Below, one piece after another: positions 3,538 to 63,983 of a stretch of 64,000 nt of DNA. The translations under genes were made by a program, and so were the position numbers. The stretch is taken from the NCBI GenBank assembly GCA_963695435.1, contig OY968788.1, positions 349,456 to 413,455 of the forward strand, written 5' to 3'. This DNA comes from an uncultured bacterium. GTDB taxonomy: Bacteria > Patescibacteriota > Kazan-3B-28. The notes under the pieces were generated by a model, which was not told the origin of the DNA, did not search any database, and saw only the letters and a program-made list of their open reading frames with translations. Each line of letters opens with the position of its first letter. The first letter of the stretch is position 1.

Positions 3538-3766
3538 AGACTGTTCCGTTCTGCTATCGTACAGCGACAACATGTAACTTTACTGCATGCAGTGGGGCTT
3601 TGGTCTTGCCCCGCAAATGATGGGAAAAGGTACCAATGCTTGCCTCCCAAACTTGAGATGAAGGGGCGAGTAATGGGAAAAAACAGCAAACCTAGAGTGA
3701 GAAAAGTTTTGGTAAAGAGCCCTAGATCCGCTGCCGTTGCTTTCATCCTAGCATAAATCGGCGATG

Positions 3767-4912: not shown

Positions 4913-5965
4913 TTATTTGTCGAAAAGAGCAAGTTGGGGAGGTCTTCCGCGGGGTCCACGAATTTGTAGTTTTCCGAGCCGATAGAGATTGGCCGATGGA
5001 ACCAACCAGCGACAAGTCCCTTCAATCGGACACTGACTACAGGTGTTGAGATAGTTCTCAATGTTCTGCTTTGTCCAACTAATTTCTTTGGGGACTACTG
5101 TAATCACCCGAGAATCTTCATCCCTAGGGACGATACTCTTGTTACCCGGGTGGCATCGACAGGCGATGCTCGACAAGAACCATGTCGCATCACAGAGTTC
5201 GGTTGGATCAACCTTCCGCTCTCGACAGTAGCGTTGAGTCAGTTCCCTAGCAGCAGCGAACATCTTCTCCGTTCGGAAGTTATAGTTGTCCGGTGCGTTA
5301 GACGCGGTGATCAACCCATTTGCGATAATAATCCTCATCGCATGAAAGTCGATCGGAATCGGCATCGATATAGGAGCTACCAACTTTGCCCTCACGAGAT
5401 AGAAGGCTAACATACTTACCATCTTCTCTCGGAACCCACGGAAACCATGGGGATATTCTGGGTTGAATTCCCCTGCTGGTTGACAGATGAGACGCTTGCA
5501 GAGCGTTTCATAGTCAGCATCAGCAAAGAGTGCTCTCGTGTCACCACCCCAGAACTGATGCAGTTTGGTGAAGTTGTCGACCCATTGTCGGCAAGACTCC
5601 TCAATGTGGTTTAGCCGCCGCTTCAAGAGTTCTTCAGCCAGCAACGCCTTGGTTCGGCTAGGCTGGCGAGCGACCAACTCGGGATCGAAGAGCCTTGGCT
5701 GGTCGTCGTGAAGCTTTACCAAACTGTTAAACGCAGTGTAGCTTTGAATGCTACCCTTCATATAACAGCAAACTGCTAACGAGAAATTAGATTCTGCTTT
5801 CCCCCCAATTTTGAGAGTATGGGGCAGAGTATTACTGTCATAGACGGCAGTAGCGATACTGTAGGGATACGCGGGGCGGCGAAGAGCCGCGATTAGCGCA
5901 TCAAAGACTTGGTATGCCCGTTTCCAGTGGGTAACCAACTTAACTTCCCCGTTGCCGTTAGCCAC
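4913..5965 (-). CDS. hypothetical protein, elevated GC (~50%), C-terminal C-x2-C-x5-C cysteine cluster
   Basis: 353 aa ORF; AGGAGG sits 8 nt before second GTG (track start GTG abuts SD), so start probably 5965; composition differs from neighbours. Confidence 0.5.
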   Translation of the reverse strand: MANGNGEVKLVTHWKRAYQVFDALIAALRRPAYPYSIATAVYDSNTLPHTLKIGGKAESNFSLAVCCYMKGSIQSYTAFNSLVKLHDDQPRLFDPELVARQPSRTKALLAEELLKRRLNHIEESCRQWVDNFTKLHQFWGGDTRALFADADYETLCKRLICQPAGEFNPEYPHGFRGFREKMVSMLAFYLVRAKLVAPISMPIPIDFHAMRIIIANGLITASNAPDNYNFRTEKMFAAARELTQRYCRERKVDPTELCDATWFLSSIACRCHPGNKSIVPRDEDSRVITVVPKEISWTKQNIENYLNTCSQCPIEGTCRWLVPSANLYRLGKLQIRGPRGRPPQLALFDK

Positions 5966-7528: not shown

Positions 7529-8050
7529 CTAAATTGTTTGAATTGTTGAGATTATTTGGGAAACAAGATTATCTACATTGAGAGAAGTCCGTTCGGTATC
7601 ACAGGCAGTTTTTTGTGGGTCGTCATAGTTGGCGCATTGAACAGAGCGCAAAGCAAACTCCACCTCTACCGTTTTATCTATCTTGGGCATAGCAACGGAA
7701 TAATCGTAAGCGGTGTACACACTACCGGCCGCTCCATCGGTTTGAGCACTAACACAATAGGACAAGCCATCGATAACAAATGGTTCGACTGAACATGTTG
7801 AGGTACCAGACACCAATGTAACTGATGGCGGCCAAGTTTGCGCTGTAATGTAGGTAGTAGCAAGAGGGTCTGGATATTGGTATGAAATACCTTGTTGGGT
7901 ATCGGTGATAGTTTGCCAACCGGAAATTTCACACTGTGCTTTGCCGTTCAGACACTTTGATTGCGAGTGTCCACCTTGCCAAACGAAATATCCCGCGACG
8001 GCAATTATAACAATGGCCGCAAGAAATAGGACTTTATCTAAAGTAGTCAT
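7529..8050 (-). CDS. secreted/membrane-anchored Cys-containing hypothetical protein
   Basis: 173 aa, N-terminal TM/signal anchor, 7 Cys, co-oriented with C39-like gene. Confidence 0.45.
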   Translation of the reverse strand: MTTLDKVLFLAAIVIIAVAGYFVWQGGHSQSKCLNGKAQCEISGWQTITDTQQGISYQYPDPLATTYITAQTWPPSVTLVSGTSTCSVEPFVIDGLSYCVSAQTDGAAGSVYTAYDYSVAMPKIDKTVEVEFALRSVQCANYDDPQKTACDTERTSLNVDNLVSQIISTIQTI

Positions 8051-11423: not shown

Positions 11424-11987
11424 TTAGCTACTGGCCATCATATTATTGAGAGCCTCTAAGACTTGAGGGAGCTCGAGCCACCCTTCATGCCCGCTTAGAT
11501 GGCCACCATTGGGTACTATCACCAGTTCGGCATCTAACTTATCTTTTATTAGGTTTGCGTTTTCCATCGGTACAGACGGATCATTGTCGCCATGAATTAC
11601 TACAATCTTCAAATTGTAAGATTTTATTTTTTCAAAGTTGAACGGGTCATTCAAAAATCTATCGACTTTATCTTTTCCTATCGGAATTACTGGTCCCGCA
11701 ACAAACACGAGCCCAGCCACACCATGAATGTTATCCGCAGATTCTAAATAGCGTAAAATTGCGGGTACTCCCAAACTGTGCCCTACTAGATAAATTTCGT
11801 CTTGGGCGCCTTGTTCCACTTGTCTTGCAATTTCTTTCCCCCATTCTTCTGGCGAAGGATTCCATGGATTAGGCATTGGAAGCGCGCAGGCATAAATATC
11901 CTGCTTATCTAACTCAGCCATTAGCCATGGCCGCCAACCTCCATTGGGGCTACCTTCGTAACCGTGGATTATGAATACTTTTTTCAT
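11424..11987 (-). CDS. alpha/beta hydrolase (RBBP9/YdeN-like serine hydrolase)
   Basis: 187 aa, nucleophile elbow GHSLG, later D and H (IHGDNDPSVP ... GGHLSG). Confidence 0.65.
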   Translation of the reverse strand: MKKVFIIHGYEGSPNGGWRPWLMAELDKQDIYACALPMPNPWNPSPEEWGKEIARQVEQGAQDEIYLVGHSLGVPAILRYLESADNIHGVAGLVFVAGPVIPIGKDKVDRFLNDPFNFEKIKSYNLKIVVIHGDNDPSVPMENANLIKDKLDAELVIVPNGGHLSGHEGWLELPQVLEALNNMMASS

Positions 11988-12000
11988 CTTTAGAATTTTC

Positions 12001-12074
12001 TGGCAGGCCTGGAGGGAATCGGACCCCCGCCTTCGGTTTTGGAGACCGACGAGCTACCACTACACTACAGGCCT
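12001..12074 (-). tRNA. tRNA-Trp (anticodon CCA), 3' CCA encoded
   Basis: Hand-folded: acceptor AGGCCTG/CAGGCCT, anticodon stem TCGGT/ACCGA, loop CTCCAAA; strong similarity to E. coli tRNA-Trp; D-stem has one T-T mismatch. Confidence 0.8.
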
Positions 12075-12103
12075 TTGTATCAACAGGGATATTTTACCAT
12101 AAA

Positions 12104-12130
12104 CCCCGCTACTGGAGCGGGGTTTTTTAT
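12104..12130. terminator. hairpin CCCCGCT-ACTGGA-GCGGGG with T-run on + side, between rpmG and tRNA-Trp
   Basis: perfect 6-7 bp GC stem; U-tract strong on + strand, weak on minus. Confidence 0.4.
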
Positions 12131-12313
12131 TTATTTAGTTTCTTTGTGTTCGGTGGTCTTTTTGCAGATACGGCAGAATTTCTTTCTGACCAACCTATCC
12201 GGTGTATTGGTCGGATTCTTGCGAGTAGAATAGACGCCCTGCTTACATACAGTACACATCAGTTTGATGATGGGGCGTTTTACCTTCTTGGTGATTTTAG
12301 CTTTTGCTGGCAT
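12131..12313 (-). CDS. rpmG: 50S ribosomal protein L33 (zinc-ribbon C+ form)
   Basis: 60 aa, CTVC ... CRIC. Confidence 0.9.
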
Positions 12314-12314
12314 A

Positions 12315-13097
12315 TTATGCTTTTTTAATTTGTAGGAAGTCTAATTCAACTGGAGTCTCGCGACCAAAGATGCTGACCAGCACCTTGATTTTCCCTTTTT
12401 CTTCGTCAATTTCATTAACTGAACCATCGTAGTTTTTGAACGGGCCGTCTTTGATGTGTACCAAATCGCCGATATTTACATCAATCTTATACTTTGGTTC
12501 TTCCACATCCATCCGCTTGAAGATACCCTTCAATTCAAAGTCGGAAACAGGAACAGGGACTGTACCAGAACCGATGAATCCTGTTACATTTGGCGTGTTG
12601 CGAACAACATACCAAGAATCTTCCGTCACTTTCATATTGACCAACACATAACCGGGGAACATTTTCTTTTCCACGATTTTGCGTTTGCCGTTCTTGATTT
12701 CAATTTGATTTTCTTTCGGGACCAAAACATCAAAAATTTTGTCTTGCATATCGAGCGAAGAAATTCTTTGCTTTAAACTATCAGACACAGCATCTTCATA
12801 GCCGGAATAAGTGTGTAAAACATACCACTGCCCCGGCCATTCCTTAGAAAGAGAAGCTGCTGTATCGGCAACTGGAGTCGGCTCTTCGTCGGTCTTTTCT
12901 TCAATTTCTTCCTCAATTTCATCAGCTGGTAATGCAGCTTGCTCAACCGATTCTTCAATTTCAGCTAATTCACCCTTGCCCTCTTCTTCTTCAACCTCGG
13001 CTTCAGCTAAAGACTCTTCCACGGTTTCTGGAGTGTCTTCTGCCTCTACGGGTGTCTGTTGGTCGTCTGATTGTGGTAAGTTGTCGTTTTCTTCCAT
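12315..13097 (-). CDS. nusG: transcription antiterminator NusG with ~85 aa acidic N-terminal extension
   Basis: NGN ([12 protein letters not shown]) and KOW ([19 protein letters not shown]) regions; E/D-rich N-terminus. Confidence 0.9.
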
Positions 13098-13153
13098 TTG
13101 CTTTATTTATTTGTGAATCATTCCGAAGCTTTAGCGAAGGATGACGTCCATTA

Positions 13154-13405
13154 TTATTGAGTTACTGGGGTAGCTGTAACATCACCGAGGCTAGTGCTGG
13201 CTGTCGGCGTATTCTTTTCAGCCAAGATAGTCAGCCACTTGATTCCGGTAGTCAAACCGTAGTCAGCCAATGCTACATAAACCATAAACAAAATTGACAC
13301 ACCTAACACTATCAAAGTCAGATTGATAGCAGCTTGGCGAGTCGGCCAAGTGACCTTGGCTAATTCAACCCGAGCTTCGTGGAAAAATTTTAGAATACCC
13401 TTCAT
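13154..13405 (-). CDS. secE: preprotein translocase subunit SecE
   Basis: FFHEARVELAKVTWPTRQ followed by single TM helix. Confidence 0.85.
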   Translation of the reverse strand: MKGILKFFHEARVELAKVTWPTRQAAINLTLIVLGVSILFMVYVALADYGLTTGIKWLTILAEKNTPTASTSLGDVTATPVTQ

Positions 13406-13423
13406 ATGTTGCGATTATTAGGT

Positions 13424-13517
13424 GGAGGTAAGAGCAGTGAGCTTGTTTCGACTTGTCGAAATGGGCTTTGCCCACGAGCGTTGAGGGAGGGAAATACCTC
13501 GTCCTTCCCTCAAGAGC
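13424..13517 (-). repeat. X-element copy 1 (structured ~95-nt repeat) between rpsI stop and secE start, sense orientation
   Basis: shares CGCTCGT, GGGC-AAA-GCCC hairpin and CAAGCTCACTGCTCT with copies at 35106-35200 and 24262-24360; stems differ but remain paired. Confidence 0.6.
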
Positions 13518-46081: not shown

Positions 46082-46165
46082 TGGTGGGCGGGGTGGGATT
46101 CGAACCCACAAGCCTTGCGGCAAAGGATTTTAAGTCCTTCGTGTATACCGTTCCACCACCCGCCC
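46082..46165 (-). tRNA. tRNA-Leu (anticodon TAA), class II long variable arm, CCA encoded
   Basis: hand-folded; anticodon loop CTTAAAA. Confidence 0.85.
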
Positions 46166-46168
46166 AAT

Positions 46169-46255
46169 TGGTGGGCACGAGAGGAGTTGAACCTCCACGG
46201 GATTGCTCCCACAGCGACCTGAACGCTGCGCGTATGCCAGTTCCGCCACGTGCCC
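46169..46255 (-). tRNA. tRNA-Leu (anticodon CAG), CCA encoded
   Basis: anticodon stem CAGCG/CGCTG, loop TTCAGGT. Confidence 0.85.
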
Positions 46256-46271
46256 ACACCGATTTTTAAAA

Positions 46272-46345
46272 TGGAGACCTGGAGGAGAGTCGAACTCCTG
46301 TACGGGGTTTTGCAGACCCCTGCCTAACCGCTCGGCCACCAGGCC
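46272..46345 (-). tRNA. tRNA-Cys (anticodon GCA), CCA encoded
   Basis: loop CTGCAAA; acceptor has one GU. Confidence 0.8.
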
Positions 46346-46408: not shown

Positions 46409-46490
46409 CGTCATTCTTCCTCTCAAAATCACAAACACTCGCTTCGCTCCTTGGTTTGTGATTTTGTGTTTGGGTTTTCAATCTCCGTTT
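46409..46490. repeat. Z-element copy 1: AAAATCACAAAC-N17-GTTTGTGATTTT hairpin module upstream of tRNA cluster 1 / downstream of dCMP deaminase
   Basis: ~90% identical over ~55 nt to 47515-47570. Confidence 0.6.
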
Positions 46491-46517: not shown

Positions 46518-47006
46518 TTACGGTGTAGCCGTTGTGGGGTACTCTTTTACTTTATCATCAAGAATTTCAAATTTAATACCCGCTTCTTCAAATATTCGCC
46601 GACTTTCAGCGCTTGCCTGATAATCCTGCCGTACCACTACCCGTACAATTCCACTGTTGATAATCATCTTGGCACAGGCATAACATGGCGTCATTGTGCA
46701 ATATAATGTACCGCCGTCAATAGAGATGCCAAATCGTGCAGCTTGGCAAATTGCATTTTGTTCGGCATGAGAAGTCCGAACACAATGCTTAGTTATACGA
46801 CCATCTTCATGAACAGTATCCTTGAATTCGTGACCTACTTCATCACAGTGTGGCAATCCTATTGGTGAACCAACATAACCAGTAGAAAGAATCCGTTTAT
46901 CTTTCGTAATAACTGCGCCGCTTTTTCCGCGATCACAAGTAGCACGGTTGGCTACCGCTTCACAAATTTGAAAAAAATATTCATCCCAGCTCAGTCGCTC
47001 GTTCAT
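46518..47006 (-). CDS. dCMP (cytidine/deoxycytidylate) deaminase family, zinc-binding
   Basis: HAEQNAI and PCYACAKMI motifs; start moved to second ATG (AGGAGG 7 nt upstream; perfect TATAAT overlaps first ATG). Confidence 0.75.
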   Translation of the reverse strand: MNERLSWDEYFFQICEAVANRATCDRGKSGAVITKDKRILSTGYVGSPIGLPHCDEVGHEFKDTVHEDGRITKHCVRTSHAEQNAICQAARFGISIDGGTLYCTMTPCYACAKMIINSGIVRVVVRQDYQASAESRRIFEEAGIKFEILDDKVKEYPTTATP

Positions 47007-47095: not shown

Positions 47096-47170
47096 TGGAG
47101 CGGGTGAGGAGAGTCGAACTCCCGTCTCTACCTTGGCAAGGTAATGTAATAGCCGTTATACGACACCCGC
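47096..47170 (-). tRNA. tRNA-Gly (anticodon GCC), CCA encoded
   Basis: loop TTGCCAA. Confidence 0.8.
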
Positions 47171-47217: not shown

Positions 47218-47292
47218 TGGTGCCGAGAGACAGAATCGAACTGTCGACACCACGCTCTTCAGGCGCGTGCTCTACCACTGAGCTACCTCGGC
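47218..47292 (-). tRNA. tRNA-Phe (anticodon GAA), CCA encoded
   Basis: loop CTGAAGA. Confidence 0.85.
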
Positions 47293-47323: not shown

Positions 47324-47400
47324 TGGTGGATCCAAGAGGGATCGAACCTCTGACCTTTCGGATGTAAACCGAACGCTCTAACCAGCTGAGCTATGGATCC
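47324..47400 (-). tRNA. tRNA-Val (anticodon TAC), CCA encoded
   Basis: loop TTTACAT. Confidence 0.8.
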
Positions 47401-47403
47401 AGT

Positions 47404-47488
47404 TGGTGGGCGAGAGAGGACTCGAACCTCCACGGGTTGCCCCACAGCGCCCTTAACGCTGCGTGTATACCAGTTTCACCACTCGCCC
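47404..47488 (-). tRNA. tRNA-Leu with anticodon AAG (A34), paralog of the Leu-CAG gene
   Basis: anticodon stem CAGCG/CGCTG identical to Leu-CAG gene, loop TTAAGGG instead of TTCAGGT. Confidence 0.7.
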
Positions 47489-47490
47489 AT

Positions 47491-47575
47491 TGTCATTCTG
47501 CTGTACAGCAGAATTCCTCTCAAAATCACAAACAGTCGCTTCGCTTCTTGGTTTATGATTTTGTATTTTAAACTA
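47491..47575. repeat. Z-element copy 2 plus 18-bp palindrome TTCTGCTGTACAGCAGAA abutting tRNA-Leu(AAG) 5' end
   Basis: see copy 1. Confidence 0.6.
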
Positions 47576-47578
47576 CAC

Positions 47579-49333
47579 TTATTCTTTCTTCGACTTTATG
47601 TACCACTGTGCAATGTTTATAAACCTATCCGTTGTAGATGACAAGTTAATCTTATCAGTTACACCTTTTACTTTCTTGTCCACCAGATAGGTATATTTTG
47701 GCTGATACAGCAAGATAGCAGGAACAAGATCGGCAAAAGCGGATTGAAATTTCAAATAATATGGAATCGCTTTGTTCAAACTAGCGGCAGTACGGGCTTG
47801 TTCCAAATTATTATCAATGTCCTTGTCCACTTCCACCGCCAACGCCAACCCGGGGTCTTTTATTTCACTGCTGTGCCAATAAACATACGGGTCGGAGTTG
47901 CCGCCCAAATCCTGTCCGAAGATCAGTACTTCATAAGCGCGCGGACGAATTACATCTTTAATAAGAGTGGCAACATCCAGCGGTTGAAGAATCGCTTCCA
48001 CGCCAATGCTTTTCCATGTTTGCTGAACTAGTTCTGCTGTTTTACGGGATTTGGCATCATCACGAAAAGCTACTTTCAAACTTAATTTTGTTTTGTTCTT
48101 ATCCAGAATTCCGTCACCATCAACATCCACCCAGCCGGCTTTTTTCAATAAGTTCGCGGCACGGGCGATATCGAATTCATATTTTTTGATATCGGGATTG
48201 TGCCCCCAAAAGCCAGGTAAAATCGGCGAGTCCACTTTTTCAGCATAACCTTGTTCCACTTCATCAATAATTTGCTGCTTGTTGGTGGCGTAGGCTAGTG
48301 CTTGTCGAATAGTTTTATCCGCGAGCAGTGGGTTGCTACCAAGTTGATTGAAGAAGATTGCCTTATATTGTGGCAATGCGAATTTGTAGATCGAATCATT
48401 GGCGGTTGTGCTAAATACCGGCTCGGTAAACCCACCTGCGCTAACTTGACGGTTGCGGAAAGCAGCATAAAGATTCTCGGCGTTGTCAAAGAAGTAAAAA
48501 ATAATGCTTTCGATGTATGGTTTGGTACCATAGTAGTCGTCAAACTTGGTGAGTGTAATGGAAGTATTCAAATCGGATGATTGGTATCTGTACGGACCGG
48601 TACCAATAATTTTCCCCGAATCATATTGGCTAGCCATATCTTTTATCGCAATATCGGCAAAGATATGTTCGGGGATTATCCCCACGGACAGGTCGGTCAG
48701 GAAAAATGCCGAGGGTGCGGGGAGAGTGAACTTGACCGTCAAGTCGTCTAGTTTTTCCACCAAAATTCCGGCAAAGCTGGATTTCAACACACCTGTGTAG
48801 TCATTGTTTTGCAGAGTGTTGAAAGTATAAACCACGTCATCAGCGGTAAAATTTTTACCATCATGCCATTTGGCATTGGACTGCAGACGGAAGAGATAAG
48901 TTTTCCCACCGTCCAATAAATCCCACCCGGTAGCTAGATTCGGCACTATTTCGCGTCCCGTACCTATTTTAGTAAGACCAGAATAAACAAGCGAAGAAAT
49001 ATCTCGGTCAGCCGCGTTCGTGCCAGAAAGCAGCGGATTGATGTATTTCGGGCTGCCAACCAACCCTTCAATATGCACACCTCCGGCAATTGGTTTGACT
49101 TCGCTAACTCCAGCATCAGACAAAGCCAAGATCGCGCCGCCGCCAATAATTACTATGACCAAGCTCGCCAAAATAACTTTTTCGGTAAAAGTAAATTTCT
49201 TTTTCAAATGATTCAACCACAAAACCGCCTCACCAAAAAACTTCTGCATTCCTCCAATAGCGGAGATTGCAGCGTGTTTAGTGCGGTCTACTTTCAGTCT
49301 TTTGACAATGCGAATTTCTGGCTCTTTTTTCAT
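47579..49333 (-). CDS. ABC transporter substrate-binding protein family 5 (peptide/nickel-type) with N-terminal TM anchor
   Basis: 584 aa; SBP_bac_5-like. Confidence 0.7.
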   Translation of the reverse strand: MKKEPEIRIVKRLKVDRTKHAAISAIGGMQKFFGEAVLWLNHLKKKFTFTEKVILASLVIVIIGGGAILALSDAGVSEVKPIAGGVHIEGLVGSPKYINPLLSGTNAADRDISSLVYSGLTKIGTGREIVPNLATGWDLLDGGKTYLFRLQSNAKWHDGKNFTADDVVYTFNTLQNNDYTGVLKSSFAGILVEKLDDLTVKFTLPAPSAFFLTDLSVGIIPEHIFADIAIKDMASQYDSGKIIGTGPYRYQSSDLNTSITLTKFDDYYGTKPYIESIIFYFFDNAENLYAAFRNRQVSAGGFTEPVFSTTANDSIYKFALPQYKAIFFNQLGSNPLLADKTIRQALAYATNKQQIIDEVEQGYAEKVDSPILPGFWGHNPDIKKYEFDIARAANLLKKAGWVDVDGDGILDKNKTKLSLKVAFRDDAKSRKTAELVQQTWKSIGVEAILQPLDVATLIKDVIRPRAYEVLIFGQDLGGNSDPYVYWHSSEIKDPGLALAVEVDKDIDNNLEQARTAASLNKAIPYYLKFQSAFADLVPAILLYQPKYTYLVDKKVKGVTDKINLSSTTDRFINIAQWYIKSKKE

Positions 49334-56835: not shown

Positions 56836-57450
56836 ATGATTCTCGGAATAGTTTTTGTGGTCGTGTTGGCACTTTTCCTTTTGGGAGAGGGAGGAATCTG
56901 GAAGCAGAAAAAAGAGGATCGAGCATCGGCGATATGTTCAGCTTTATGGATAAGTGCAATATTGTCTTTTTTTTGCGCTTGGTTTATCGCAGGACTTTGC
57001 AACTCCAGGCCCGTGAATGAACCTGTCACCGCCAAGAGCTCACTCATAGCAGTACAGGGAGGGCTAGCCAAGAGTGGCAATTTCTCGCTATCGGGAGACA
57101 TTTTCTATGTTTCCGGTAGTGGGCGTTACGGTGATGAGTCCCAGTTCAGTTACTACATCAAAGACCGAGACGGTGGAATTATGCTGGAGACTGTCCCCCG
57201 CTACGCGGACATCAAAGTCTATGAGGACAGCGCTGAACCATATGTCCTGAAGCATTACTTGCATAGGACATATTCTCAAAGACAGCGTTGGGCGTCGTGG
57301 CCGTTGCCCCTGCCCTTGGACGTGGGACCTAAACTGATGGACAAATTAGTGCAAGTCGATCTGCATGTTCCGATTGGTTCCATTAAGCCCGACTTCAATG
57401 TTCGGGTCTACCAGAACACGGTTGCCCAAACCGCTGATTCATCTCCTTGA
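56836..57450 (+). CDS. hypothetical membrane-anchored protein
   Basis: 204 aa, two N-terminal hydrophobic segments. Confidence 0.4.
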   Translation: MILGIVFVVVLALFLLGEGGIWKQKKEDRASAICSALWISAILSFFCAWFIAGLCNSRPVNEPVTAKSSLIAVQGGLAKSGNFSLSGDIFYVSGSGRYGDESQFSYYIKDRDGGIMLETVPRYADIKVYEDSAEPYVLKHYLHRTYSQRQRWASWPLPLPLDVGPKLMDKLVQVDLHVPIGSIKPDFNVRVYQNTVAQTADSSP

Positions 57451-59725: not shown

Positions 59726-60168
59726 CTCTTTGCAAGTGTGTAACTACCCTGTACCGACGGTATAGGGAGGAAAGTCCGGACACCATTTGGGATTTGGAAA
59801 GTCGCTAACGGCGACCAGGGGCAACCCTAGGGAAAGTGCCACAGAGACTATACTAGTTCTGCTGTAAAGCAGAATGAAAGGTGAAAAGTTGCGGGATGTG
59901 TTGTGTAAAGAATTAGGCCAAACCTAATGATTTGCGCCTCTTGCCACTCGCAAGGTTCCACCGCGAGGTGGAAATTCTGGTAAACCCTTTCCGGTGCAAG
60001 TTGGACTGGACTGAATATGCTAACAACATAAATTCCAATTGAGTATATTCAGACCCCAACGCTTGAGTTCTGGAGCAATCCAGAACCTAGATAGATGGTT
60101 ACTCTACCCGCGTACATTCGCAAGACTGTACAGGGTGAGACAGAATCCGGCTTATAGCTTGCAAAGAG
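59726..60168 (+). ncRNA. rnpB: RNase P RNA (bacterial type A-like), ~443 nt
   Basis: GGGAGGAAAGTCCGGAC (P4 5' strand), ACAGAATCCGGCTTATAG (P4 3' strand), GGTAAACCC; P1 pairing CTCTTTGCAAG / CTTGCAAAGAG. Confidence 0.85.
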
Positions 60169-60172
60169 TTTT

Positions 60173-60876: not shown

Positions 60877-62997
60877 CTAGGCGATGGTGATGGTGATGAT
60901 ACCAGTGTAGTTACCTGTCGCCTTGTTCCATAGACCAGTGAGATCAATTGTGGGCGAAAAATAGAATCCCCCCTTACCATAACCCGCAGAAGCTGCGTAG
61001 GCTGTTCTGGAAGCGTCTAGAGTGGCACCGGTTTGGCCAGTCATATTTGTTGTGACAGAGGTAAAACCGACATTAAGAACACCTGTCGTGGATGTCCATG
61101 TGATATTAGCATGGTCGATAGTGTTTCCTCCATTAGTCATATCAGTACCAGAAACTGATACGGTATAAGCGGAAGCTGTAGAGCGCTTGTCCCAAAAACC
61201 AATCTTCTCGCCGGCAGCAAAGACATACTGCTTGGTATTCGTGCCTACAGTGACACTTCCATAGCTCACGCTGGCAGGTGCAGTGCTTACTTCCAAATCA
61301 TAAGCGGCGGCGGTAGTGAGGGTAGGATAATTATTGCCCACAACAGGAGATACTACACCAGCAGGAGTATCTGTCCCGCCACTATTCTCGATGTAGTAGA
61401 GGCGGAAAAAATATTGAGTGTTGGCGGTGGCACCATTATTTTGGATGGTAAATTCAAATTCTGTGGCGGTGCTGGCGGCAGGATCAAAGGTACTGGAGCT
61501 AGTGCTACCGCCAGTTTCGTTATGAGTACCGTTGGCGGCAGTAGTGGTAAGAAGACGAGTAGTTATCGAAGTGTCGTCAGTGTCAACGCCGTTGTAGTAG
61601 CGCCAAATAACCATTTGACCAACCCCGCCGACATCAGTCGCCGATGAAAAACTATTAGAAGTATCGTATTCCAAATGAAATTTTACATCCGTGCCGGCCG
61701 TCGCCCCAGTTTCCGTTACACCAAAGCGTAATTTTAAAGCATTCCCGTCATAGACTATTCGGGTGCTGGCTGGCGCGTGGCTTTCGGTTCCGATAGTGTC
61801 TCCTGCTAAAATATCAGTCCCTAAGGTGTCGGCAGGGTCAGTCGTTTGTTCGGCATCACACCAGCGCCATTCGGTTGATTTGGGAGTATATACAGCCAAT
61901 TTCTTCGCTACCACCACATCAATATACGCAGGAGTATTGCTCTCGGAGGAGAAGTTGCCGGAGATGGTATGAGTGTGAGCGGCAGCTGTGGCGCCAGGAG
62001 GAGTGGTGCTGGTGGTGACACCCGTTGTGGCACTGGCGCCAAGAGAGACAACACTAAGGGCATGGGTATGAGTGGCGGAGCCTTGTCCGGTCTGGTAGCC
62101 AGTCTGGGCCTCCATAAAAACTTGGTAGAATGCTTCGCCTCCGCCATTGCTAATGATATCCCAGCTGGAGCTGTCAATATTCGGGTCACCATTGAACATA
62201 GCTATCATGCCGGCGGGGATAGCGGTGCCGCCGCTGTTGGTAACAGAGCCCAAGACCACTTCTGTATGGAGAGGGGTATCGTCGTTACTGATAGGAGAAG
62301 TGCCGGTATAGCTGTGGGTATGGGCGCTGGAGGGGCGCGGATCGGTCCCGGAAGCTACAGCAACGGTGGCGCTGGGGCCGCTGGTGACAATGCTTAGATT
62401 AGCATGGGAGTGGGTGTTGGTGCTACTAAAGCCACCAGAAGTAGAATTAAACCTGATCATATAGCCATTTTGACCAGCATAACCGCTAAATCCCGTTCCC
62501 ACGGCGGCATCAAATATAGCGATGGCGAATTGGGGCAGGGTGGTGGGAATACCGCTATCGCAAGAAATGGGGATGAGATCGCGATAAGCAGGCGAAGGAG
62601 TTGCAGTATTCATAGTGAAAGTGGTAAGAGTCGAGTGGGTGTGGATGGTGTTGGAGACAGTAACTCCCGTTCTTGTACGGTTGGCGCCCGTGGAAGACGC
62701 AACCACAGCTACGGTGCCTTGGGTGTGAGTATGAGTGGGGGTGGTGGCGGAGCCAAGGGCCGCATTCCCCCGCGGGAAGTAGCCGGCATAGGTAGCGCCT
62801 GTGCCAACACCCGCAGTCCAGCCAGTAGGGACACTTCCGCCCAGACCGGTATCCCAGAGCAAAATCATTTTCTCGCCGGTAGCGCGAGCTTTTGGGACAT
62901 TACCTGTTTCTAACGGGAACAAATGGGAAAAGCCGGCCACTACCGAGACCGTTATGATAATGACTGTAATACGCTGGAAAAGTTTTGTCCGCTTCAT
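60877..62997 (-). CDS. secreted/anchored 706-aa Thr/Gly/Ser-rich protein with six periodic (S/T/A)-H-(T/S)-H motifs; possible fiber-like surface protein
   Basis: N-terminal signal anchor; PTHTHTQG, IHTHST, NTHSHAN, SAHTHSY, SATHTHAL, AAHTHTIS. Confidence 0.5.
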   Translation of the reverse strand: MKRTKLFQRITVIIITVSVVAGFSHLFPLETGNVPKARATGEKMILLWDTGLGGSVPTGWTAGVGTGATYAGYFPRGNAALGSATTPTHTHTQGTVAVVASSTGANRTRTGVTVSNTIHTHSTLTTFTMNTATPSPAYRDLIPISCDSGIPTTLPQFAIAIFDAAVGTGFSGYAGQNGYMIRFNSTSGGFSSTNTHSHANLSIVTSGPSATVAVASGTDPRPSSAHTHSYTGTSPISNDDTPLHTEVVLGSVTNSGGTAIPAGMIAMFNGDPNIDSSSWDIISNGGGEAFYQVFMEAQTGYQTGQGSATHTHALSVVSLGASATTGVTTSTTPPGATAAAHTHTISGNFSSESNTPAYIDVVVAKKLAVYTPKSTEWRWCDAEQTTDPADTLGTDILAGDTIGTESHAPASTRIVYDGNALKLRFGVTETGATAGTDVKFHLEYDTSNSFSSATDVGGVGQMVIWRYYNGVDTDDTSITTRLLTTTAANGTHNETGGSTSSSTFDPAASTATEFEFTIQNNGATANTQYFFRLYYIENSGGTDTPAGVVSPVVGNNYPTLTTAAAYDLEVSTAPASVSYGSVTVGTNTKQYVFAAGEKIGFWDKRSTASAYTVSVSGTDMTNGGNTIDHANITWTSTTGVLNVGFTSVTTNMTGQTGATLDASRTAYAASAGYGKGGFYFSPTIDLTGLWNKATGNYTGIITITIA

Positions 62998-63983
62998 TTC
63001 TTCTTCCGTTTGCTACTTGTTTTGCTCGTACTCAACCTCGCGGATAGGCGTGGCTGTCCGCTGGTAGTTATGCGTGGATGATACAAAGAAGATTTAAACG
63101 ATAGTAGATAGCTAACGAGAGATGGCATAGTTTCGGTTTCGGATTTACGGTATAGCTCATCAGATGTCAGTGGACGAATTGGAATCATTAATTTGTCTCC
63201 GACATTTAGCGCATAGGGCCAGACCAGCCGGTTGAATCTAACGATTAGTTGGGGCAAAGCGCCTGTTTTTTCGGAAATATGAATAATTGTTTCACCTTTT
63301 GCGATAGTATAAACCTCAACTTTGGTGCGGTATTTATTTCTGTCTTTCCAGAAAGCCAATAAACGGTAGACGAGCCATCCAATGACCAAAAGAATGGCTA
63401 GGAGTGCGAAGTAAATTCCTCCTATCCAGAAACCGAAAGAATATTTAAAAGTCATGTCTGGCAGAGTTTTCTTGCTTCCATCCGACAAGATTTCATCAAT
63501 CGACCATGTGTGTAAAACCAGATTTACCCGATAATAGCCCATCAGCGGAGCGTGTTTTGCCCACGTCTTGTCTATAGTTATCGTACTATTAGGCAGAAAA
63601 GCTCCATTTGAGTTTTCTACTTGGTGATAAGTTCCAAACAATCCTTTTAGGTTAATATCTAGCGCCGGTTCGATATTTATATTGCTTTCGTTGCGGGCTT
63701 GAATATGAAAAATTAATTTCCCATCCTTAATTTCATGAGTGACTTTTTGGAAAGTTAGTTTGCGAACAACCTTCCCCGGCACCGTCACATAAATTCGGGC
63801 ACCTATACGGATTCTTAGCCCGACTCCGTTGGGTGAGTCGGCTGTTTTTTCATAAATTACAATTGCCCCGCTGTGTTGGCCCGGACTGGCATTGTCGGGA
63901 ACTGTGAGATTGAAATTAATGTTAGCAGATTTGCCAGCACCGACTTGAATAGTATTAGTAGAAAGCTTAACCCAATTACCCAA
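62994..63983 (-). CDS. hypothetical protein: beta-rich Ig-like N-region, TM helix, C-terminal LysM domain; N-terminus possibly beyond window (frame open to 64000)
   Basis: TM FGFWIGGIYFALLAILLVIGWLVY; LysM YTIAKGETIIHISEKTGALPQLIVRFNRLVWPYALNVGDKLMIP. Confidence 0.5.
   Translation of the reverse strand: MGNWVKLSTNTIQVGAGKSANINFNLTVPDNASPGQHSGAIVIYEKTADSPNGVGLRIRIGARIYVTVPGKVVRKLTFQKVTHEIKDGKLIFHIQARNESNINIEPALDINLKGLFGTYHQVENSNGAFLPNSTITIDKTWAKHAPLMGYYRVNLVLHTWSIDEILSDGSKKTLPDMTFKYSFGFWIGGIYFALLAILLVIGWLVYRLLAFWKDRNKYRTKVEVYTIAKGETIIHISEKTGALPQLIVRFNRLVWPYALNVGDKLMIPIRPLTSDELYRKSETETMPSLVSYLLSFKSSLYHPRITTSGQPRLSARLSTSKTSSKRKKK

Follow-up and report, generated by a model that had tools for sequence, protein, structure and literature searches.

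Anticodons that start with A, other than that of tRNA-Arg(ACG), are almost absent from prokaryotes. The leucine codons CUU and CUC are read in most bacteria by tRNA-Leu(GAG), and where A34 is naturally left unmodified, as in Mycoplasma tRNA-Thr(AGU) and some organellar tRNAs, it usually belongs to the sole decoder of its codon box. In several families of the Lactobacillales, tRNA-Leu(AAG) is nevertheless fixed and tRNA-Leu(GAG) is missing (PMC13249217); in Streptococcus pyogenes, S. mutans and Oenococcus oeni it is fully modified to inosine (I34) by TadA (PMC11472039, PMC13249217). It is deaminated in vitro by the TadA of S. pyogenes, not by that of E. coli, and the loop consensus of the S. 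pyogenes enzyme is YUAMGRA, with A38 (PMC11472039). The Lactobacillales tRNA equalises the decoding of CUU and CUC and accompanies a recoding of leucine codons; in GtRNAdb, nearly all Leu(AAG) genes of bacteria belong to the class Bacilli (PMC13249217), and a 2026 survey of A-starting anticodons found Firmicutes genera, all of them 60-70% AT (bioRxiv 10.64898/2026.05.15.725136).

For the CPR bacteria (Patescibacteria), tRNA-Arg(ACG) appears to be lacking altogether, with GCG, UCG and CCG used instead, and some deep-branching bacteria do not use I34 (Shulgina and Eddy, PMC8629427); in the literature we found no paper that links Leu-AAG or TadA with this group. The present gene came to attention in a sequence-only reading, which took A34 outside tRNA-Arg(ACG) for a rare bacterial exception. 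This is true outside the lactic acid bacteria, but understates the case within them, where Leu(AAG) is fixed in several Lactobacillales families and carries I34 (PMC13249217, PMC11472039).

[quoted passage not shown]

The window, that is, the whole 64-kb stretch of DNA that was analysed, has a GC content of about 45% and contains housekeeping genes such as rpoB, rpoC, nusG and RNase P RNA, as well as nine tRNA genes found by ARAGORN. Leu(AAG) is the first gene of a seven-tRNA minus-strand array downstream of an SBP_bac_5 gene, in the order Leu(AAG), Val(UAC), Phe(GAA), Gly(GCC), a protein-coding ORF, Cys(GCA), Leu(CAG) and Leu(UAA) (Table 1).

Table 1. Features of the tRNA array and its synteny anchor in the window.
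Feature	Position	Strand	Basis and remarks
SBP_bac_5 substrate-binding protein gene	47579..49333	-	Pfam; directly upstream of tRNA-Leu(AAG), synteny anchor
tRNA-Leu(AAG)	47404..47488	-	ARAGORN; Rfam RF00005; class II, long variable arm, A73, CCA encoded
Anticodon loop U32 U33 A34 A35 G36 G37 G38	47450..47456	-	Direct reading and cmscan alignment
tRNA-Val(UAC)	47324..47400	-	ARAGORN and Rfam; Leu(AAG)-Val(UAC) order kept in relatives
tRNA-Phe(GAA)	47218..47292	-	ARAGORN and Rfam
tRNA-Gly(GCC)	47096..47170	-	ARAGORN and Rfam
dCMP deaminase (ComEB-like) gene inside the array	46518..47006	-	Pfam PF00383, NCBIfam, PDB match
tRNA-Cys(GCA)	46272..46345	-	ARAGORN and Rfam
tRNA-Leu(CAG), paralog, loop UUCAGGU	46169..46255	-	ARAGORN and Rfam
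tRNA-Leu(UAA)	46082..46165	-	ARAGORN and Rfam

The hand folding of the sequence-only reading had given the anticodon as AAG, and this register is borne out by two independent methods and by direct reading of the sequence. ARAGORN, the check proposed at the time, returns a tRNA-Leu with anticodon aag at the same minus-strand position; the Rfam model RF00005 matches 47407-47488 with 47.1 bits against a gathering score of 29, and its alignment places UUAAGGG on the consensus anticodon loop, with the stem CAGCG/CGCUG on either side; and direct reading assigns U33 to window base 47455, A34 to 47454, A35 to 47453, G36 to 47452, G37 to 47451 and G38 to 47450, the anticodon thus occupying 47452-47454. 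The agreement of ARAGORN and the Rfam model rules out a register shifted by a nucleotide, which had been named as a danger. G18G19 of the D-loop and the T-loop (GGTTCGAGTCC) are canonical, and when the gene is aligned with the two other Leu genes of its array, Leu(CAG) and Leu(UAA), the mean column identity is 83%. The gene has what is expected of a bacterial class II tRNA-Leu: a score above the covariance threshold, helices backed by covariation, and a Leu-type body common to the other Leu isoacceptors of its array.

The surroundings of the array show several features of their own. A 55-nt element with a 12-bp A/T-rich hairpin (AAAATCACAAAC...GTTTGTGATTTT) occurs in two copies, 46417-46471 and 47514-47568, which are 93% identical and which each lie between the end of a protein gene (dCMP deaminase and SBP, respectively) and the start of the next minus-strand tRNA cluster. 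A weak sigma-70-like match, from 47523 to 47495 on the minus strand, overlaps the second copy, and a perfect 20-nt palindrome (ATTCTGCTGTACAGCAGAAT) fills 47495-47514, between this copy and the 5' end of tRNA-Leu(AAG). The element may belong to a promoter of the tRNA clusters, or may act as a terminator or a processing site; it was not found in any of the relatives' loci that were fetched and is thus specific to this genome. Elsewhere in the window, the RNase P RNA (bacterial class A, 59728-60170, plus strand, 210.5 bits) spans 443 nt for a model of 367 positions, and therefore carries insertions. Among the larger ORFs of the window, five (173-706 aa) remain without a Pfam match at E <= 1e-5: 60877-62997, 62994-63542, 4913-5761 and 7529-8050 on the minus strand, and 56836-57450 on the plus strand.

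The space inside the array varies among relatives (11707-13484 in locus L121, 12619-13905 in L128, 12197-14015 in L134) and holds genes with a weak HNH match, AAA_17/DNMK kinase, dCMP deaminase, dCTP deaminase/dUTPase, NUDIX and HTH_38 genes. The array looks like an insertion hotspot for nucleotide-metabolism or mobile-looking genes that differ from one relative to the next.

Conservation and origin of A34 in the clade

Homologs of the SBP protein of the window carry the name Patescibacteria group bacterium, one of them, at 59% identity, being from a candidate division Kazan bacterium; the clade with Leu(AAG) is thus part of the Patescibacteria (CPR), with candidate division Kazan as its nearest named members. 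Orthologous loci were gathered through SBP homologs of falling identity in the assemblies of NCBI, ENA, JGI and Logan. A scan of metagenomes, for which SBP homologs had been aligned, yielded 80 loci. Leu(AAG) is present in 20 loci, at SBP identities of 47-85%, and these provide 14 distinct sequences, the window's own included. In clade loci with enough downstream DNA the gene lies within about 100 nt after the SBP gene, with the exception of L142, where the array has an inverted copy at a distance of 4.9 kb and the gene is found there. Two loci show no AAG gene in the DNA that is there to be seen: L140, whose 699 downstream nucleotides contain Leu(UAA) and Val(UAC), and L143, whose 276 contain no tRNA. 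Two further clade loci, L144 and L145, have almost no downstream DNA. Apart from these four, the gene is present in every fetched relative with an SBP identity of 45% or more.

Across the 14 distinct sequences, all 322 stem cells of the cloverleaf are paired. Compensatory changes occur in 11 of the 23 pairs, spread over all five helices and with no broken pair; none of 500 shuffles reaches the observed values, and 3' partners that have been slid out of place pair at only 41-69%. The anticodon stem takes four compensated forms (CAGCG, CACGG, CAUGG and CUAGG) around an AAG that is invariant in all 14, and the loop reads UUAAGGG in 13 of them and UUAAGGA in the remaining one (L139). Taken together, these comparisons show that genomic A34 is fixed across the clade, and is not sporadic.

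This pattern bears on whether the gene is what it seems. Its Rfam score is the lowest of the array and its single-fold z-score only -1.8, as might be expected of an artefact of sequencing, assembly or register, or of a gene that had come from Leu(CAG) or Leu(GAG) by duplication and was decaying or already a pseudogene. However, the paralogous Leu(CAG) scores much the same (48.0 bits), class II tRNAs being typically low on the general model, and the match exceeds the gathering score, a low covariance score being what the sequence-only reading had named as the mark of a pseudogene. The register is agreed by two programs, the gene was met independently in many assemblies, and its conservation through the clade, with compensatory changes in every helix, is not that of a sequence in decay; the suggestion of a decaying duplicate is refuted by it. 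An error at position 34 is likewise excluded, since AAG recurs in all 14 distinct orthologs, which come from assemblies made independently of one another (NCBI, ENA, JGI and Logan). We therefore regard all these explanations as highly improbable, and the gene of the window as a real, working-looking Leu tRNA gene with genomic A34, which is evidently maintained by selection.

Outside the clade, at SBP identities of 34-40%, the SBP gene is followed by Leu(CAG) in 47 loci from other Patescibacteria and by Leu(GAG) in 2, and AAG is absent from every locus with an SBP identity of 41% or less. Leu(CAG) of the window, which had fairly been described as a close paralog of Leu(AAG), has the same anticodon stem, but it is not very close, with 70 of 87 positions (80%) identical. 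The AAG gene of the window in fact agrees better with the CAG gene of L123 (78/87) than with most of its own orthologs (70-75/87) or with the CAG gene of its own genome, and three types of acceptor stem are spread over both the Leu(AAG) and the Leu(CAG) genes of the clade. Bodies are thus exchanged between the two isoacceptors, which suggests gene conversion or anticodon switching. Position 38, in contrast, follows the anticodon: it is a purine next to every A34 (G in 13 of 14, A in L139) and U in all seven Leu(CAG) genes of the clade that were compared. As this coupling of positions 34 and 38 is kept while the tRNA bodies are swapped, the loop must be under isoacceptor-specific selection.

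The simplest origin of Leu(AAG) would be a single transition from G34 to A in a GAG-type gene that already had G38. A genome collection was scanned with the pattern CGCAGCGYTRAGGNCGCTGTGG, in which position 34 could be either A or G; among the matches listed, at least 120 loci were found, all of them G34 tRNA-Leu(GAG) and nearly all from Alphaproteobacteria, and none had A34. The anticodon stem of the AAG gene is thus shared with ordinary Leu(GAG) genes, one of which was compared and is identical to the window tRNA at 68 of 85 positions. Neither the window nor the clade loci, which amount to about 335 kb and represent one genomic region, contain a Leu(GAG) gene. An origin from the Leu(CAG) gene that follows the SBP gene in outgroups was rejected as the simplest course, since it needs a transversion; it is further disfavoured because a CAG gene is still present in the clade, at the opposite end of the array, and because G38 is common to the AAG genes and the two GAG genes of the outgroups.

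Decoding and the state of A34

Since LeuRS does not use the anticodon (PMC11028032), leucine would be the amino acid carried by tRNA-Leu(AAG), and m1G37 could be formed given G36-G37. This tRNA would decode CUU and CUC, in place of tRNA-Leu(GAG), a replacement that is provisional. A TadA-family enzyme, with its gene in another part of the genome, would probably deaminate A34 to inosine, as happens in Streptococcus and Oenococcus, and the mature anticodon, IAG, would then read CUU and CUC about equally and CUA weakly.

A deaminase gene does lie inside the array, with the HAE...PCxxC motifs of a zinc deaminase and a position between two tRNA clusters that might commend it as the enzyme acting on A34. 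Its family is nevertheless clear. The ORF has Pfam dCMP_cyt_deam_1 (PF00383), scores 123.8 bits against the NCBIfam model ComEB and 26.5 against TadA (cut-off 150), and finds its best PDB match in a Streptococcus mutans-type dCMP deaminase (2hvv, 3e-28), with the TadA of S. aureus (2b3j) at 1.3e-6; its true start is the second ATG, behind AGGAGG, which gives a protein of 162 aa rather than the 169-aa ORF, and exactly this form is also found on short Logan contigs. The gene occurs only in the window and at two of the relatives' loci (L121 and L134); in five of the eight clade loci with full flanks (L123, L126, L128, L130 and L132) it is missing, yet Leu(AAG) is kept. The sequence-only reading had judged this neighbour to be of the dCMP deaminase type and had claimed nothing functional from its proximity, and was right on both counts, as it was in its other factual statements. 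In L121 and L134 the deaminase gene adjoins a dNMP-kinase-like AAA_17/DNMK gene, and in L128 a gene for dCTP deaminase/dUTPase and a similar AAA_17 kinase gene are found at that place in the array; this company points to a nucleotide-metabolism cassette in the array. That the ORF supplies the A34 deaminase is hardly credible, and by its family and neighbours it is best classed as a nucleotide-metabolism insert.

TadA itself was not seen. A scan of the window for the HAE...PCxxC motif, following the earlier proposal to look for TadA-like genes, found the dCMP deaminase only, as did tblastn with an approximate E. coli TadA query against the window and loci L121-L215; neither the 64 kb of the window nor the fetched CPR loci, about 930 kb in all, thus yielded a TadA. 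Nor is there an Arg(ACG) gene in the window or these loci, the sole Arg tRNA seen, in an outgroup CPR locus, being UCG, which fits the report on CPR genomes (PMC8629427). If Arg(ACG) is lacking from the CPR, as reported, the canonical substrate of TadA, and possibly TadA too, may therefore be absent.

Codon use offers an indirect view of the modification state. CUU and CUC together make up 27% of the Leu codons in the window, and CUA 11%. The proportion CUC/(CUC+CUU) is 0.40 overall in the clade and rises to 0.62-0.77 in L140-L142, where CUU accounts for 3-7% of Leu codons and CUC for 10-11%; these members with more CUC than CUU are counted as keeping A34, including L140, whose 699 visible downstream nucleotides are without AAG. 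Relative to the outgroups, the clade shows a weak shift to relatively more CUC. As a proxy of the modification state, codon usage is suggestive only, the sample being small and confounded by GC3 (p = 0.046).

The choice is then between an A34 that becomes inosine and one that stays as it is. We favour inosine as the probable state. A34 never reverts to G in the diverged clade, it is kept by members in which CUC exceeds CUU, and the only bacterial Leu(AAG) genes studied experimentally are modified to I34; that CUC is not avoided fits inosine better than an unmodified A34 with its preference for U, although this argument from codon usage is a weak one, since CUC might equally be read by a U34 Leu tRNA from another part of the genome. 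Against inosine stand the failure to see TadA, the reported absence of Arg(ACG) from the CPR, and the loop, in which positions 32-37 of UUAAGGG fit YUAMGRA but position 38 is G instead of A, A38 occurring in L139 only.

These same points speak for a clade without TadA and Arg(ACG), in which plain A would read CUU by Watson-Crick pairing and CUC and the other CUN codons weakly, the remainder of the box being left to a U34 Leu tRNA. The apparent lack of Arg(ACG) in CPR, the existence of deep-branching bacteria without I34 (PMC8629427), the empty search for TadA in the window and fetched loci and the departure of G38 from the known TadA loop consensus (PMC11472039) all go with it, and Leu(CAG) in the same array, together with CUA at 11% of Leu codons, suggests that other CUN decoders exist. 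However, reversion to G, though a single transition, is not seen in any of the 14 diverged sequences, and the persistence of A34 in the CUC-rich members, with CUU at 3-7%, is hard to explain if its benefit were better reading of CUU. Prokaryotes moreover have almost no unmodified tRNA(ANN), against which selection apparently acts (bioRxiv 10.64898/2026.05.15.725136, PMC11066159), and the known cases of unmodified A34 are sole decoders of their box, unlike here, where Leu(CAG) is present in the array of the window and of its relatives, so that a situation of the Mycoplasma Thr(AGU) type does not obtain. On balance we consider an unmodified A34 rather unlikely. A broader proposition, that the clade has no Arg(ACG)/TadA pair and that Leu(AAG) would be either the only substrate of a retargeted or non-canonical deaminase or a positively maintained unmodified A34 in a split box, is doubtful, if slightly less so.

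Leu(AAG) was also encountered in phages. Seven IMG/VR phage contigs (L216-L219 and L221-L223; 34-164 kb, six of them 94-164 kb) have tRNA arrays of up to 21 genes. The tRNA-Leu(AAG) among them shares the loop UUAAGGG with that of the clade, but its body differs and CCA is not encoded. The arrays of L219 and L221 also carry tRNA-Arg(ACG) with the canonical loop CUACGAA (example coordinates of phage tRNAs are 3624-3708 and 6756-6829 in L219), and Leu tRNAs with A34 and G38 thus occur beside the classical TadA substrate as well. The phage contigs with Leu(AAG) have no close relative in the annotated phage collection. A further unusual tRNA for bacteria, which normally read AUA with a lysidine-modified CAU tRNA, is tRNA-Ile(UAU), found in the outgroup Patescibacteria locus L191 (2476-2551) and likewise in the phage array L216 (11760-11835).

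Comparison with known A34 systems

The Leu(AAG) of the lactic acid bacteria, the only well-studied exception of its kind, serves as a natural experiment on the effect of inosine wobble on codon usage and on the widening of TadA specificity. A second, independent clade-wide case would replicate this experiment in uncultured, genome-reduced bacteria of middling GC content, and would show whether the AT-rich background of the Lactobacillales is required. Given that the CPR are reported to lack Arg(ACG), the clade could show either an inosine system for leucine only or an unmodified A34 kept by selection, both of which bear on how the eukaryotic expansion of I34 may have started; the choice between inosine and unmodified A34 is for this reason more interesting than the sequence-only reading had realised. 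Should the clade truly be without Arg(ACG) and TadA, either arrangement would be undescribed in bacteria, and the finding considerably more interesting.

Among the described systems, the eukaryotic tRNA-Leu(IAG) has the same anticodon and the same presumed decoding of CUU, CUC and CUA, but nothing suggests that its heterodimeric enzyme, ADAT2/3, is present in the clade. The unmodified A34 of Mycoplasma and organelles resembles the present case in the small, reduced genome, with plausibly few modification enzymes, and in the location of A34 in a four-codon box; the box is split here, Leu(CAG) being in the same array, which sets the clade apart from Mycoplasma Thr(AGU). With tRNA-Arg(ACG) and TadA of E. 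coli and S. aureus it shares genomic A34, the preceding U33, G36 and a loop of seven nucleotides, that is, the core UAMG as broadened in S. pyogenes, and differs from tRNA-Arg(ACG) in having A35 instead of C, G37 instead of A and G38 instead of A.

The closest likeness is to the Lactobacillales: a class II Leu tRNA that has G36-G37 and an A34 encoded in the gene, fixation throughout a clade and an apparent role as CUU/CUC decoder, the weak shift to CUC in the clade being parallel to the recoding described there (PMC13249217). For the Lactobacillales, TadA and I34 have been established, as has the lack of Leu(GAG), whereas the clade is known here from the genes of one region. It has G38 instead of A38, a GC content of about 45% in the window against genera with 60-70% AT, and a CPR background reported to be without the canonical substrate Arg(ACG). 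As it belongs to a different phylum, the Patescibacteria (CPR), it is apparently an independent second occurrence of tRNA-Leu(AAG) in bacteria.
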